Under the pieces are notes generated by a model that made no database searches, had not been told where the DNA came from, and was given only the letters and a program-made list of their open reading frames with translations. A DNA stretch of 10,710 bases from a virus (Duplodnaviria; Heunggongvirae; Uroviricota; Caudoviricetes), in the IMG/VR virus record IMGVR_UViG_2778261301_000001, positions 1 through 10,710 of that record; one strand, 5' to 3'. The stretch's first letter is position 1; each line of letters starts with the position of its first letter. The position numbers and the translations under genes are program-made. Below are positions 2,109 through 7,799 of the stretch, piece by piece.

Positions 2109-3521
2109 TTACCAACCGGAGGATGAGGGAACGTATATTTCAGTTTCTTCGCGGACCAATGCCGGGCAATGCATACACATCATCAGCGCATCAGCCAGGT
2201 TAGGAGATGGAATACCGAGCTTCTGCTTCATTTCGACCTTAGTCATTAGCTCCAGCTTCCCGTTTTTATTGAATTTGCGCTGAATCTGCGTCAGTTCTGC
2301 AAACAGCTTCTCCAGCATCTTCTCGCCTATCGCTTCTTTGTCGAAACTCAGCATGTCGTCGGGGTCTGCATACTCACCGTGAACAACCGCCCGATATGTC
2401 AGATACAGCCTGTCAGCCAGCGCGTAATAGAATTGCGCTCGCTTATTGCGAAATACATCGCCAATAGTGCGAACGTTGTCGCCCTGTACTACTTCATCAG
2501 CCCATGCTCCGGCCTGATACGGCGCATCTTCATCGAATGGCGATTCGCTGCCCTTGAACATCGTGGCGGTGATTTTCTTGCCGGAGAACGCTTCCGTTGT
2601 CTGTCTGCGTAGCCCGGCACCAACACCATCACCATCCCACAGGTAATGGTCAGCGCCGTCTTCAATCGCCAGCGAAGTAGCCCAGTCAGCACCTTCATTG
2701 ATGTCCATCAGCAGGCCTTCGGCAATGCGCTTAACTACCGAACCGTGGCGCGATGCATAACCTTTAGCATCTGGCCCTGTATCTGATGGGTCATGCGCAG
2801 AGACAACAGCGCCTTTCGCTTTCCATCCGAGTTTCTTGTGCGCATCGGTTGCAGCTTCAAGCCATTCACGTTTGATGATTGCCATATCACTTGCGCTCAC
2901 TGGCTCACCAAGCCAGATGTGACGATACAGTGTCGGATTTCTGCGTTTACACTCTTCCATCTCCAGACGGAGAACTTCAGGAAAGTGCGGGTTGTCTGTA
3001 TAGTTCACCGTCAGCAGACAAATATCATCGGGAGGATTTACAACGAATCGCTGATAGGTATCGTCGAGAATGTTCTTAGGGTTGAAGCTCACCCATATTT
3101 CGGAAAACGGCTTGCGGATGGTTGGTATCAGGATATCCCATGATTCCTTCGTTACCGCTTCCGCTTCTTCCACCCAGCAGATATCAATGCCTTCGAGCGA
3201 TTTAATCTTCGTCGGGTTGTTTTTTATGCCGTAGAACATGAATTCAGCATTCGTTCCGAGATGACGAATCATTGAACGCTGAATTTCAAACTCAGCCGAA
3301 TACCCTTCCCGCTCGATGGTGTCTTCAAGCAACCGGATTACCGAATCGCTGATGCTGTTTTGCAGTTCACGAGCGCAGAGAATACGCACAGGCTGCCGAC
3401 GCGCCGCTTCAACAAGAAGCCTCGCAATTGCCCATGACTTACCGCTACCTCGACCGCCTTTGGCGACTTTGTAGCGATGCGCCTCAATAAACGGTTCAAA
3501 GATAGGATTAATCGAGGTCAT
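2109..3521 (-). CDS. terL: Terminase large subunit (Sf6 gp2-like; ATPase plus nuclease)
   Basis: 470-aa ORF with an N-terminal Walker A motif (VAKGGRGSGKSWA) and a Walker B-like ICWVEEAE. It sits directly upstream of the portal with a 2-nt spacer, and its length and sequence match the recalled Sf6 TerL. Confidence 0.93.
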   Translation of the reverse strand: MTSINPIFEPFIEAHRYKVAKGGRGSGKSWAIARLLVEAARRQPVRILCARELQNSISDSVIRLLEDTIEREGYSAEFEIQRSMIRHLGTNAEFMFYGIKNNPTKIKSLEGIDICWVEEAEAVTKESWDILIPTIRKPFSEIWVSFNPKNILDDTYQRFVVNPPDDICLLTVNYTDNPHFPEVLRLEMEECKRRNPTLYRHIWLGEPVSASDMAIIKREWLEAATDAHKKLGWKAKGAVVSAHDPSDTGPDAKGYASRHGSVVKRIAEGLLMDINEGADWATSLAIEDGADHYLWDGDGVGAGLRRQTTEAFSGKKITATMFKGSESPFDEDAPYQAGAWADEVVQGDNVRTIGDVFRNKRAQFYYALADRLYLTYRAVVHGEYADPDDMLSFDKEAIGEKMLEKLFAELTQIQRKFNKNGKLELMTKVEMKQKLGIPSPNLADALMMCMHCPALVREETEIYVPSSSGW

Positions 3522-3943
3522 TTTCCGAATAGAGTGCTCATCGGTGATGTTTCAATCTGGATTGCGCCGCCGTCCTTACCGACAAGCTCGTTAGTTACCT
3601 TGTCGCCATACTTACGGGGATTCATTCTGGCCAGCGCCCATTTGCGGGTATCAACGCGAAGTCTTGCCTTTGCCACCTCGGCGGCATCAGGGATTACGTC
3701 GTCAGCAATTTCGAATATCTCTTCGAAAATAGAGTCGGCCCGAGTCTCTGTTGCCTTCGCGTACTGGTCACGAAACTCCTGATGTTCAGCCAGCCAGCGA
3801 AAAACTGATGTTTTGCTCGGCATTCCTGGGCGTTCGCAAACTTTGCGCAGACTCTCGCCGGAGGAAAGCAATGCGCAAATGTCATTAGCCACCTCCGGCA
3901 TATAATCAGAGGGGCGACCACCTTTCTTTTTCTCAGTCGCCAT
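3518..3943 (-). CDS. terS: Terminase small subunit (Sf6 gp1-like)
   Basis: 141-aa ORF whose TGA overlaps the terL ATG (ATGA). The N-terminus MATEKKKGGRPSDYMPEVANDICALL... matches the recalled Sf6 small terminase, and a GAAGGGA Shine-Dalgarno lies upstream. Confidence 0.85.
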   Translation of the reverse strand: MATEKKKGGRPSDYMPEVANDICALLSSGESLRKVCERPGMPSKTSVFRWLAEHQEFRDQYAKATETRADSIFEEIFEIADDVIPDAAEVAKARLRVDTRKWALARMNPRKYGDKVTNELVGKDGGAIQIETSPMSTLFGK

Positions 3944-4022: not shown

Positions 4023-4265
4023 TTACGCTCCGGTAGTGAACAGGTCTAACGCTTCCTTCGATTTACGCACCGCTTCGAATGTGCGGATCGTGATATCCGA
4101 ATTAGCGCCGCCTGACTGGAAGTGAATTTTAAATAGCTCAAGCTTCAGCTCGTCAGTGCCAATGAATTGAAATGCTTCTTCTGCGGCTGCGTTCTGGTTC
4201 ATGACCAGTTTGTAAATCTCTAACTGGAATTTCTGTTCTTCAGTCATGGGAATAATCTCTGCCAT
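4023..4265 (-). CDS. Hypothetical small protein (80 aa) upstream of terS
   Basis: Clean ORF with a GGAG Shine-Dalgarno 7 nt upstream of the ATG at 4265-4263, same strand and operon context as the terminase genes. No family recognised. Confidence 0.55.
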   Translation of the reverse strand: MAEIIPMTEEQKFQLEIYKLVMNQNAAAEEAFQFIGTDELKLELFKIHFQSGGANSDITIRTFEAVRKSKEALDLFTTGA

Positions 4266-4281
4266 TGTTGGCTCCGTTTAT

Positions 4282-4312
4282 CCGTTAAAAGGGATATCAG
4301 TTAAGTTATCCC
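4282..4312 (-). terminator. Candidate intrinsic terminator (weak) between the moron and the 80-aa gene
   Basis: Inverted repeat GGGATA..TATCCC at 4291-4312 (6-bp stem, 10-nt loop), followed on the minus strand by TTTTAACGG (plus 4282-4290). Confidence 0.3.
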
Positions 4313-4574
4313 GTGCAGGGTATAAGCCATTGTCGAGACCACTCATTGAATGGTCTCTGCAATAACCGATGTCTTTCCATCAGTCCGCCACCACAAAGAA
4401 TCTTTTTTGCCATAAGGCAGGAGGTTCATCTTTCAGTGGCTGCCAGTTTATTTCCCCACTTTCTGGCTTGGGTTGTTTCGCTGTACTGCCGTTAATTGGT
4501 GAGTCCGGGGATTATTTCAGTTCGTTACCAGGCATTTCTTTTAGCTCTTTCAAATGACAACGATTGAGGCTAAA

Positions 4575-4997
4575 TCACTCCCCGTGCGACCTATAGTTGT
4601 AATATTTTTGGTGCAATTTGGTTTCAAGCTCTCTATCGGCAGGAATCTTTGCAATTAGATTTAGCTTCCCACCACTCATGCGAGATATCTCTGAAATTCG
4701 TTTATTAACCCTGCGACTAAACCCTATTTTTGTTAGCCCACTATCTTCAGCATGCAGAACGTACACATATGATTTTTGCGAAGCACTGGGTGCGACTTTG
4801 TTGTAATTAATCATGTCAAACATAAAGCCTTGCTTTAGCAAAGTTTCAAAAAAGATAGAATTAACACACCCATTCCTTCTCAGCTCTGCACTTAGCTTGT
4901 CAATTTCCTCTATGATGTCGCCAGACCCCTTTCCACTTATAAGAAAATCTTGGTACATGCGACCAATTCTTGAGGTAATTTCAACAAAGTTATTCAT
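4575..4997 (-). CDS. Moron-encoded protein with a C-terminal T5orf172 / MUG113 (GIY-YIG-like) domain; ends at an in-frame TGA where the family's conserved Trp is expected
   Basis: 140 aa from the first ATG (4997-4995), with AAAGG about 10 nt upstream. The C-terminal half reads SYVYVLHAEDSGLTKIGFSRRVNKRISEISRM...ELETKLHQKYYNYRSHGE-stop-F, matching the T5orf172 pattern (YVYVL, KIG, R..EIS, E..LH, GEWF). The region is locally AT-rich compared with the flanking phage genes. The ORF track's 221-aa version begins at a TTG and is probably over-extended. Confidence 0.65.
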   Translation of the reverse strand: MNNFVEITSRIGRMYQDFLISGKGSGDIIEEIDKLSAELRRNGCVNSIFFETLLKQGFMFDMINYNKVAPSASQKSYVYVLHAEDSGLTKIGFSRRVNKRISEISRMSGGKLNLIAKIPADRELETKLHQKYYNYRSHGE

Positions 4998-5135
4998 AGC
5001 GTCTTTACCTTTTAGAAAGTGAGCCTGTCTCACAGAAAAGCCGCCCGAGAGAGGTCGCCACCTATAACGGCATTTCTCAGGCTCGCTTACTGAAAGGCTC
5101 TCGTTAATATGCGCGTGAGATGCGCTGTGAAATTC

Positions 5136-5165
5136 AGATATAAAAAGCCCCGCGAATGCGAGGCT
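5136..5165 (-). terminator. Candidate intrinsic terminator downstream of the lysis cassette
   Basis: Plus 5146-5165 AGCCCCGCGAATGCGAGGCT forms an 8-bp stem with one mismatch and a GAAT loop. On the minus strand it is followed by TTTTTATATCTG. Confidence 0.45.
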
Positions 5166-5339
5166 AAATCCTGGTATTTGTAATGAACTGGCTCTTATCT
5201 CAACGCAGCCCCTTACTGCGCGCCAGATGCTCAATATCAAGCATCAGCAATGAGATGTTTAATCTGGATTTACTCCAGAAGTGATCACCACCCTGTCTAC
5301 AGAGCCAGATGTGAAGGATGATGAGTAAAATTATCGCTA

Positions 5340-5777
5340 TCATCGAAGGCATTGCGTCCTAATGTATTCCTGCAGGTAGTTAACCTGCGCGGTTATCTTG
5401 TCGATTCCACTTCGGAGACGGTAATAATTGAGTTCAGCATCTGCTGTAAGTCCTGGGCTTTCTCCATCGCCCATGCCGCTGGCTCCGGTCGTTGACTTTG
5501 CACAGGTGGCGGCGACTTGCAGGCGCTTACGCCCAGCAGAAACATCAGCACGGAGACTTTCAATAGTCGCGTTAGCATCAGCAAGCTCCTTTGTGTATCT
5601 GGCGTCAAGTTCTGCTACATCACGTTGACGCTTCTGCATGTCAGCGATTGTGGATGTGGCCTTATCGCGCTGCTCTTTGTAGGTCATGGCGTTATCACGG
5701 TAATGATTAACAGCCCATGACAGGCTGACGATGATGCAGATAACCAGAGCGGAGATAATCGCGGTTACTCTACTCAT
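5340..5777 (-). CDS. Rz: Rz i-spanin (inner-membrane spanin subunit)
   Basis: 145 aa. The N-terminus [29 protein letters not shown] is near-identical to recalled lambda Rz (N-terminal TM segment, coiled-coil periplasmic domain). Its ATG overlaps the R stop (ATGA). Confidence 0.88.
5393..5578 (-). CDS. Rz1: Rz1 o-spanin (outer-membrane lipoprotein), embedded in the +1 frame of Rz
   Basis: Embedded ORF reading [26 protein letters not shown]...PEPAAW. It has a signal peptide with a lipobox (VSAC) and a proline-rich mature region typical of Rz1. The exact start is uncertain (Met at 5578 or a downstream Met). Confidence 0.72.
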
Positions 5778-6250
5778 ACCTCAATCTCTCTGACCGTTCC
5801 GCCTGCTTCTTTGAATTTTGCAATCAGGCTGTCAGCCTTATGCTCGAACTGACCGTAACCAGCCCCCGGCAGTGAAGCCCAGATATTGCTGCAACGGTCG
5901 ATTGCCTGACGGATATCACCGCGATCAATCATCGGCAAAGCGCCACGCTCTTTAATCTGTTGCAGTGCCACAGCGTCCTGGCTTTTCGGAGAGAAGTCTT
6001 TCAGTCCAAGCTGCTTGCGGTAGGCATCCCACCAACGGGAAAGAAGCTGATAGCGCCCGGCTGCTGTTGATTTGAGTTTTGGGTTTAGCGTGACAAGTTT
6101 GCGAGGGTGATCGGAGTAATCGGTAAATAGCTCTCCGCCTACAATGACGTCATAACCATGATTTCTGGTTTTCTGACGTCCGTTATCAGTTCCCTCTGAC
6201 CACGCCAGCATATCGAGGAACGCCTTACGTTGATTATTGATTTCCACCAT
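5774..6250 (-). CDS. R: Endolysin, lambda R-type lytic transglycosylase
   Basis: 158 aa, [51 protein letters not shown]..., essentially identical to recalled lambda R. The start overlaps the S stop as in lambda. Confidence 0.95.
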
Positions 6251-6557
6251 CTTCTACTCCGGCTTTTTTAGCAGCGAAGCGTTTGATAAGCGAACCAATC
6301 GAGTCAGTACCGATGTAGCCGATGAACACGCTCGTTATATAAGCGAGATTGCTACTTAGTCCGGCGAAGTCGAGAAGGTCACGAATGAACCAGGCGATAA
6401 TGGCGCACATCGTTGCGTCGATTACTGTTTTTGTAAACGCACCGCCATTATATCTGCCGCGAAGGTACGCCATTGCAAACGCAAGGATTGCCCCGATGCC
6501 TTGTTCCTTTGCCGCGAGAATGGCGGCTAACAGGTCATGTTTTTCTGGCATCTTCAT
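6234..6557 (-). CDS. S: Holin/antiholin, lambda S (S107/S105 dual start)
   Basis: 107 aa, [39 protein letters not shown]..., near-identical to recalled lambda S. It has the Met1-Lys2-Met3 dual-start motif (ATGAAGATG at 6557-6549). Confidence 0.95.
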
Positions 6558-6682
6558 GTCTTACCCCCAATAAGGGGATTTGCTCTATTTAATTAGGAAT
6601 AAGGTCGATTACTGATAGAACAAATCCAGGCTACTGTGTTTAGTAATCAGATTTGTTCGTGACCGATATGCACGGGCAAAAC

Positions 6683-6712
6683 GGCAGGAGGTTGTTAGCG
6701 CAACCTCATGCC
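6683..6712 (-). promoter_or_regulatory. Conserved GC-rich stem-loop in the S leader (lambda-like)
   Basis: GGCAGGAGGTTG / CAACCTCATGCC (12-bp stem, one mismatch, 6-nt loop), followed on the minus strand by GTTTTGCCCGTG. The same structure sits at the same place upstream of S in recalled lambda sequence. Function not assigned here. Confidence 0.5.
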
Positions 6713-6847
6713 ACCCGCTTTCACGAAGCCAGCCATTACGCTGGTTTTCTTTTATGCAAAGCACACCGCACCGTAGCCACAGCGGATAAGGTGATTATTT
6801 TTGTCTGTCTGGTATTTGGGTTGATGTGCTTTCAGAAAGGTCGTGAT

Positions 6848-6886
6848 TAAAACGCAAAAAGCCCCGAGCTATTAACTCAGGGCTTT
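6848..6886 (-). terminator. Promoter-proximal intrinsic terminator of the late operon (tR'-equivalent; target of Q antitermination)
   Basis: On the minus strand, GCCCUGAG-UUAAUAG-CUCGGGGC (8-bp GC-rich stem, extendable to 11 bp) is followed immediately by UUUUUGCGUUUU. It lies about 25-65 nt downstream of the predicted pR' start. Confidence 0.6.
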
Positions 6887-6905
6887 ATTTAACGAGTGCA
6901 TTTAT

Positions 6906-6948
6906 CCATCGTTTGGTCAAATTTACCCAACTTTATTCAAAAAGTCAA
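6906..6948 (-). promoter_or_regulatory. Late promoter pR' with Q-utilisation (qut) region
   Basis: The minus strand reads TTGACT (plus 6943-6948), a 17-bp spacer, TAAATT (plus 6920-6925), then TTGACCAAACGATGG. This is nearly identical to recalled lambda pR' (TTGACTTATTGAATAAAATTGGGTAAATTTGACTCAACGATGG), including the pause-inducing AACGAT element. Predicted +1 is near 6912. Confidence 0.75.
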
Positions 6949-6990
6949 TATCATGCCGTTAATATGTTGCCATCCGTGGCAATCATGCTG

Positions 6991-7614
6991 CTAACGTGTG
7001 ACCGCATTCAAAATGTTGTCTGCGATTGACTCTTCTTTGTGGCATTGCACCACCAGAGCGTCATACAGCGGCTTAACAGTGCGTGACCAGGTGGGTTGAG
7101 TAAGGTTTGGGATTAGCATCGTTACAGCGCGATATGCGGCGCTTGCTGGCATCCTTGAATAACCGACGCCTTTGCATCTTCCGCATTCTTTCTCAACAAC
7201 TCTCCCCCACTGCTCTGTTTTTGCTATATCAACCGCACGGCCTGTACCGTGGCAATCTCTGCATCTTGCGCCCGGCGTCGCGGCACTACGGCAATAATCC
7301 GCATAAGCGAATGTTGCGAGCACTTGCAGTACCTTAGCCTTAGTATTTCCTTCGAGCTTTGCCACACCACGGTATTTCCCCGATACCTTGTGTGCAAATT
7401 GCATCAGATAGTTGATAGCCTTTTGTTTGTCGTTCTGGCTGAGTTCGTGCTTACCACAGAATGCAGCCATTCCGAATCCGGCTTGTGATTGCGCCATCCC
7501 CATAGCAGCCATCACATCAGTACCGGAAAGAGAGTCAGAAGCCGTAGCCCGTGGTGAGTCGCTCATCATCGGGCTTTTTGGCGAATGAAATTTAGCTACG
7601 CTTTCGAGTCTCAT
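6991..7614 (-). CDS. Q: Late-gene antiterminator Q (lambda-type)
   Basis: 207 aa, MRLESVAKFHSPKSPMMSDSPRATASDSLSG..., essentially identical to recalled lambda Q, with a zinc-binding CRDCHGTG...CGRCKG region. It sits immediately upstream of pR'. Confidence 0.95.
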   Translation of the reverse strand: MRLESVAKFHSPKSPMMSDSPRATASDSLSGTDVMAAMGMAQSQAGFGMAAFCGKHELSQNDKQKAINYLMQFAHKVSGKYRGVAKLEGNTKAKVLQVLATFAYADYCRSAATPGARCRDCHGTGRAVDIAKTEQWGRVVEKECGRCKGVGYSRMPASAAYRAVTMLIPNLTQPTWSRTVKPLYDALVVQCHKEESIADNILNAVTR

Positions 7615-7799
7615 GGCCTTCCCCTTTTGCCCTGTTTGACCATCAGGACGCCGTTAACTATTACGTGACGCTCGCCTTTGCTGTCTCGGTTGTACTTGAG
7701 CACTGTTCCTCTTGCGCAGGAAAGCATCCTCGCCACTTCGGTCTGATTGCCTCGTGTCTGGATAAGAAGCTCTGGTATCGTTTGAATTGTGGCGTTCAT
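7611..7799 (-). CDS. ninH: NinH-like small DNA-binding protein
   Basis: 62 aa, ..TIPELLIQTRGNQTEVARMLSCARGTVLKY.. resembles recalled lambda NinH (..TIPDMLVETYGNQTEVARRLKCSRGTVRKY..). ATGA overlaps with both the Q start and the rusA stop. Confidence 0.78.
   Translation of the reverse strand: MNATIQTIPELLIQTRGNQTEVARMLSCARGTVLKYNRDSKGERHVIVNGVLMVKQGKRGRP

Follow-up and report, generated by a model that had tools for sequence, protein, structure and literature searches.

A recombination junction within the Rz spanin gene of a lambdoid lysis cassette: a lambda-type 5′ end joined to an HK97/P22-type Rz/Rz1 allele

In the lambda paradigm, as summarised in PMC6139136, Rz and Rz1 bind each other across the periplasm. 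The lysis genes of lambda (S-R-Rz-Rz1; J02459, 45186-46427) have the same gene order, the same overlaps, the same +1-frame Rz1 and the same AAGGAG ribosome-binding site as the locus described here. Rz proteins of this kind were assigned to one lambda family of 83 members, whose Rz1 partners are distributed among seven families (Kongari et al. 2018, PMC6139136). These include the HK97 family (32 members, including those of P22, Sf6, CUS-3 and epsilon34), the lambda family (28) and the HK620 family (14); HK97-type and lambda-type Rz1 belong to different o-spanin families (Table 4 of the same paper). The three main Rz1 families are the three alleles found in the present alignment. Mosaic joints in this region have also been reported. 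The idea that homologous recombination between lambdoid phages is directed to short, conserved 'boundary sequences' goes back to Clark et al. 2001 on HK620; a later summary (PMC3233612) sets it beside a rival model, illegitimate recombination. The Sf6 entry in GenBank (AF547987) carries a misc_feature at 37312-37359 named 'bsq7; boundary sequence', which corresponds to positions 5708-5661 of the DNA analysed here. In the genome paper of phage L, gene 15 is 64% and Rz1 93% identical to P22; this pair is another intragenic Rz mosaic. The Rz joint is already described: it is a widespread, annotated lambdoid boundary and is not particular to this DNA. It is textbook lambdoid mosaicism and matters little except for correct annotation. 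Its recognition avoids two errors: a 'lambda Rz' label on the gene and the idea that the junction is out of the ordinary. Natural chimeras of this type also show which part of Rz is interchangeable (the membrane anchor) and which part is kept with its Rz1.

Compared with the lambda map, the window (the whole stretch of DNA analysed, 10,710 nucleotides from a virus of the Caudoviricetes) reads on its minus strand, and all genes of the lysis region are given here on that strand. Q (6991-7614) is identical to lambda Q at 206 of 207 residues. S (6234-6557), a lambda-type holin/antiholin (Pfam PF05106, E = 2.4e-30), matches lambda S at 106/107 residues and 321/324 nucleotides (99.1% DNA identity). 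R (5774-6250), a lambda-type transglycosylase endolysin, matches lambda R at 156/158 residues, with 96.0% identity at the DNA level. These three proteins had been described in a first-pass annotation as near-identical to those of lambda, and they do differ from them by one, one and two residues, respectively. The stop codon of R is overlapped by the ATG of Rz (ATGA).

Rz (5340-5777, 145 aa) is a mosaic gene for an inner-membrane spanin subunit, identified from both Pfam and PHROG: PF03245 (Phage_lysis; E = 5.7e-36, 123.9 bits against a cutoff of 25.4) and PHROG 13, 'Rz-like spanin' (E = 6.1e-72). A hydrophobic stretch at residues 6-23, read from the translation, is its single N-terminal transmembrane helix; Cys92 and Cys143 align with the periplasmic C99 and C152 of lambda Rz. 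Profile match, N-terminal helix and cysteines together point to a member of the Rz-like i-spanin family. Rz1 (5393-5578, 61 aa), a putative outer-membrane lipoprotein spanin subunit, is encoded in the +1 frame inside Rz and is matched by PF06085 (E = 2.1e-20) and PHROG 3198 (E = 1.4e-28). Its ribosome-binding site, AAGGAG, is located 7 nt 5′ of its ATG, and a lipobox (V-S-A-C, with Cys20) can be read from the sequence. The embedded +1-frame ORF, its own ribosome-binding site and the lipobox cysteine are those expected of an o-spanin, and by its sequence Rz1 is one of the HK97 family. Both reading frames are intact. The segment 5340-5777 would thus encode an intact two-component spanin: Rz, with a membrane anchor and a putative periplasmic coiled coil, and Rz1, the predicted lipoprotein. 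The plus-strand ORFs that cross Rz (5352-5495, 5428-5628, 5517-5720) were regarded as a side effect of coding on the minus strand.

The lysis region was compared with lambda (J02459, 43000-48502) by BLAST, global alignment, sliding windows and a maximum chi-square scan. BLAST gave two blocks: 6891-7624 (Q, pR′ and qut; 96.5% identity) and 5529-6728. In sliding windows, identity is 96-100% from 6728 to about 5690, then 46-76%, and finally about 50%. Over 6728-5686 as a whole, DNA identity to lambda is about 97%. The first 92 nt of Rz (5686-5777) match at 89/92 positions (96.7%); they include codons 1-30/31, i.e. the cytoplasmic tip, the transmembrane helix and the start of a juxtamembrane motif. 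Past the break, identity falls to 66.9% (5685-5530) and then to 49.0% (5529-5340). The maximum chi-square break is located at 5664, with a chi-square of 407 against a maximum of 21.6 in 1000 permutations. Mismatches to lambda number 29/1064 (2.7%) upstream of this point and 162/365 (44%) downstream. At the protein level, 29 of the first 30 residues of Rz are those of lambda (the change is C18S) and the first diverging codon is codon 31. The whole protein is 58% identical to lambda Rz and has a 7-residue deletion after K39; Rz1 is 45% identical to lambda Rz1 over 40 aligned residues. The description of an Rz that begins as in lambda and diverges from about residue 30, with a substantially different Rz1, is therefore borne out, and alignment of S, R and Rz with lambda reveals an abrupt drop inside Rz, not uniform divergence.

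Such a pattern could in principle arise without recombination, by uneven evolution of Rz, with a constrained anchor and a fast periplasmic part shaped by the Rz1 frame that overlaps it. Homology to lambda Rz does persist in the distal part (about 75% DNA identity for about 130 nt, then about 50%), as the overall protein identity also indicates, and the two-step decay past the break superficially resembles a rate gradient. However, the identity upstream of the break extends to synonymous sites. R differs from lambda in 18 codons at 4% DNA divergence, and 16 of these differences are synonymous (2 are replacements); the similarity upstream of the break thus reflects recent common ancestry and not protein constraint alone. 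The transition is also sharp: divergence rises from about 3% to about 45% within about 25 nt (Rz codons 31-39), 21-nt indel included. As a separate observation, a weaker second step is present inside R near 6063, where mismatches to lambda go from 7/665 (6728 to about 6063) to 19/378 (6063-5686; maximum chi-square 15.7, permutation p about 0.011). It may be another, older exchange point.

The divergent part of Rz has close relatives elsewhere. A search with it, suggested in the first-pass annotation as a way to the donor lineage, leads to HK97, P22 and Sf6, at 93-97% identity. The distal Rz of HK97/P22 type (5349-5660) comprises the periplasmic domain with Cys92 and Cys143 and is devoid of the 21 nt found in lambda after codon 39. 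P22 gene 15 matches 5743-5349 (from nucleotide 35 of Rz) without gaps at 93.4% DNA identity; the Sf6 match, also ungapped, covers 5177-6728 at 97.1%; the distal Rz and all of Rz1 are 97% identical to HK97. Rz1 is near-identical to its embedded counterparts in HK97 and P22, with few substitutions, and is closer to the Rz1 of HK97, P22 and Sf6 than to that of lambda or HK620. At the sites that distinguish lambda from P22 between 5777 and 5700, the window has the lambda base at 19 of 21; site 5772 has the P22 base and site 5766 has neither. From 5674 on, it has the P22 base at nearly every such site and shares the P22 state of the 21-nt indel. The last site of lambda type (5700) and the first of P22 type (5674) place the crossover in the interval 5699-5675.

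The endolysin of P22 is unrelated to that of the window: no similarity was found between P22 gp19 lysozyme and R (E = 13). A distal Rz of P22 type next to an endolysin gene unrelated to that of P22 indicates recombination and not uneven divergence. The same distal allele is found in P22, HK97 and Sf6, with the non-homologous endolysin in P22. Conversely, HK620 has the same S, R and 5′ Rz as the window but a third distal allele, which is shared with PS119. On these comparisons, uneven rates are very improbable and are effectively refuted, and a recombination junction is the only reasonable reading of the incongruent pattern. The junction within the spanin genes that had been proposed from the sequence is thus found where the chi-square break and the switch of informative sites place it. 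That a junction delimits an exchanged cassette at this locus is held with high confidence. The direction of the exchange may be either: the lineage of the window or lambda may equally be the recombinant.

The crossover interval is included in a boundary tract (5661-5708; Rz nucleotides 70-117, codons 24-39), the one annotated in Sf6. The tract was aligned in eight phages: the window, Sf6, HK97, P22, lambda, VT2-Sakai, HK620 and PS119. Invariant columns number 35/48 in the tract, 13/48 in the 5′ flanking 48 nt and 24/48 in the 3′ flanking 48 nt; the peptide consensus is NHYRDNA.TYK.QRDK. On the 5′ side of the tract, VT2-Sakai and P22 diverge; on the 3′ side, the three distal alleles diverge. 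The tract is 85-94% identical at the DNA level across three distal alleles and three upstream contexts (lambda R; P22 or PS119 lysozyme; the ant insertion of Stx phages). Conserved DNA, differing flanks and a transition inside the tract are the features of a lambdoid 'boundary sequence' mosaic joint, and the tract is probably one. Rz codons 1-30 are of the lambda sequence type, as are S, R and the leader that precedes S; Rz from codons 31-39 on, with the whole of Rz1, is the HK97/P22/Sf6 allele. The most likely origin would be homologous recombination within the shared tract, between co-infecting or resident lambdoid phages, because the exchange point lies inside a tract conserved across all lambdoid Rz alleles examined.

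The alternative is illegitimate recombination at a random position, kept because the gene still worked (Hendrix model); the conserved tract would then be a result of function. This corresponds to the general model presented in PMC3233612. It would agree with the conservation of the tract peptide, which is perhaps functionally constrained, and with the 21-nt in-frame indel, which coincides with the 3′ end of the tract and is the kind of scar typically left when diverged alleles are joined non-homologously. Against it, the identity of the tract across alleles and contexts provides ample present homology for RecA- or Red-type exchange, and the switch of informative sites is clean and in register. 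An illegitimate event is accordingly regarded as quite improbable, although the ancestral event could have been illegitimate and homogenised later.

Other marks of recombination were searched for. No Chi site (GCTGGTGG), a recombination hotspot, is present anywhere in the window, and no direct or inverted repeats that would indicate site-specific recombination or transposition were found around the junction (5200-5900). The window contains no tRNA or tmRNA gene and no Rfam family at gathering score; with no RNA gene present, conservation of the tract is not explained by a structured RNA. The conservation of codons 24-39 could come from functional constraint on the juxtamembrane segment and not from a role in recombination. 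In the tract, 13 of the 48 columns are variable, and synonymous positions do differ. It is conceivable, though unlikely, that the tract DNA is partly conserved as a recombination linker that would reassort at least three cassettes, each made of an Rz periplasmic domain and its co-adapted Rz1. It is similarly doubtful that the cassettes would, by this route, reassort independently of both the endolysin type and the Rz membrane anchor. If the tract did act as a linker, selection on the spanin alleles would be diversifying or specific to the host envelope.

The start of Rz1 (5578) is located 3′ of the junction, and all of Rz1 lies inside the exchanged segment; Rz and Rz1 had been expected to be exchanged together, and this holds. 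As judged from the alignments, the exchanged unit is a discrete cassette of about 320-340 bp that contains the Rz periplasmic domain and all of Rz1. The membrane anchor (Rz residues 1-23) remains attached to the module upstream. The Rz periplasmic domain and a co-adapted Rz1 would thus be swapped as one cassette, while the anchor and the endolysin gene would stay; co-adaptation would be the reason for keeping the unit together. By analogy with lambda, the C-termini of Rz and Rz1 would bind each other and, after R has cut the cell wall, would disrupt the outer membrane through its fusion with the inner membrane.

A second boundary is found near the stop codon of Rz. The P22 match ends at 5349, and HK97 identity is down to 71% in the last ~24 nt of Rz. 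In this last block, HK620 is back up to 92% and PS119 to 79%, despite a very different middle. Elsewhere, the cassette has HK97-type, HK022-type, lambda-like, P22-type and some Stx-phage structural modules as neighbours. With its own second boundary and such varied virion modules beside it, the cassette is not simply the start of 'different downstream DNA'. The junction had been taken to connect the lambda-type module to such DNA: the distal DNA is different as claimed, but it is not the mere beginning of a downstream arm.

The HK97/P22-type Rz1 has only the lipid-site cysteine, Cys20, and lacks a counterpart of lambda Rz1 Cys29. By the lambda rule on covalent spanin dimerisation through cysteines (quoted in PMC6139136), covalent dimerisation of the HK97-type pair would rest on Rz Cys143 (and Cys92) alone. 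Two further mosaics were observed in Rz. In VT2-Sakai, Rz (1356-1823 of the compared segment) has about 23 first codons that are unrelated and a distal part that is lambda-like. SfI matches the distal allele of the window over its first 147 nt only and switches near the Rz1 lipobox. Rz thus seems to have three or more recurrent exchange points.

The arrangement is common. The S-R-Rz arrangement of the window was found, over at least 80% of its length and at up to 97.5% identity, in 61 phage records, including HF4s, Sf101, mEp phages, CUS-3, Sf6, epsilon34, HK75 and HK140. A junction probe of 161 nt (5600-5760; matches counted at ≥80% coverage) has matches in 92 phage records. Among 5,426 complete E. 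coli genomes, 1,643 contain it, many of them with 100% identity, and hits of some kind occur in roughly 4,500. Probes for the lambda-allele and HK620-allele junctions gave overlapping sets of matches and hence no clean allele counts, as the 21-nt segment is common to both alleles and the rest of the probe is similar in them. That the window sequence is a chimera of assembly, or some other artefact, is the remotest of explanations: the 61 records are independent, the probe is found unchanged in many E. coli chromosomes and the Rz and Rz1 frames are intact. An artefact is effectively refuted.

The likeness to named phages is graded. Sf6 (genes 63/64, Rz/Rz1) has lambda-type S and R followed by the same 145-aa Rz and 61-aa Rz1, gene 64 being the positional counterpart of Rz1 of the window; the two pairs have point differences only (e.g. 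Rz S18, M31, T32, T43, K126). Sf6 has a phage-21-type Q and upstream tRNA genes; in the window, Q is of lambda type and tRNA genes are absent. The same cassette is present in HK97 (gp72), HK022, CUS-3, epsilon34, g341c and mEp phages. Compared with lambda, Rz of the window lacks the 7 codons after K39, and Rz1 lacks, with Cys29, the proline-rich stretch. P22 Rz is also 145 aa long but differs in its first ~11 codons (GTG start, SRIKAIIASVII), and the endolysin encoded upstream, gp19, is a lysozyme non-homologous to R. The third allele, that of HK620 and PS119, encodes an Rz of 155 aa and an Rz1 with a second cysteine; its mid-Rz and Rz1 are 13-70% identical to the window, depending on the block, and HK620 shares the last ~30 nt of Rz with it.

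Downstream of Rz, and overlapping its stop codon by 13 nt, is a 50-aa ORF (5200-5352, minus strand) whose N-terminus is hydrophobic. This ORF matches phrog_11822 (function not assigned; E = 2e-37), Sf6 gene 65 and epsilon34 gene 67, and is followed by a terminator-like hairpin (5165-5146). It could be a conserved small membrane protein, a candidate lysis accessory. The next ORF (4575-5000, to 5240 from a TTG; minus strand) has a C-terminal T5orf172/MUG113 (GIY-YIG-like) domain (Pfam E = 1.2e-7 and 1.5e-5; phrog_4284, E = 4e-64). The epsilon34 match runs on through this region: 4280-5340 is 96.2% identical to genes 67-68 of this Salmonella phage (RefSeq 'GIY-YIG nuclease family protein'). In HK620, Sf6 and CUS-3, the slot between the lysis and packaging genes carries KilA-N or Rha genes; this interval is a variable 'moron-like' slot. 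Then come a DUF2560 ORF (4023-4265) and genes of Sf6/HK620 type for the small terminase (3518-3943), the large terminase (2109-3521) and the portal (49-2115).

Upstream of S, in the qut-S interval, a 162-bp segment (6729-6890) is found in place of lambda 44610-45014. A strong terminator-like hairpin with a 13-bp stem (6886-6858, minus strand) is located only about 60 nt downstream of a pR′-like promoter (6948-6920). With this replaced segment and early hairpin, the late leader and tR′ are unlike the arrangement of the 194-nt 6S RNA of lambda. The similarity to HK620 also breaks in this interval, where 6783-6855 is unmatched.

Among phage records and complete E. coli genomes, no single record contains the whole window. 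The closest sequenced phage overall is HK620, a P22-like podovirus (83% coverage, 95.8% identity), and the best E. coli prophage match to the whole window has 87% coverage and 96.3% identity. The nin, Q and packaging genes of the window are HK620-like, and its stretch from the lysis genes to gene 68 is epsilon34-like.
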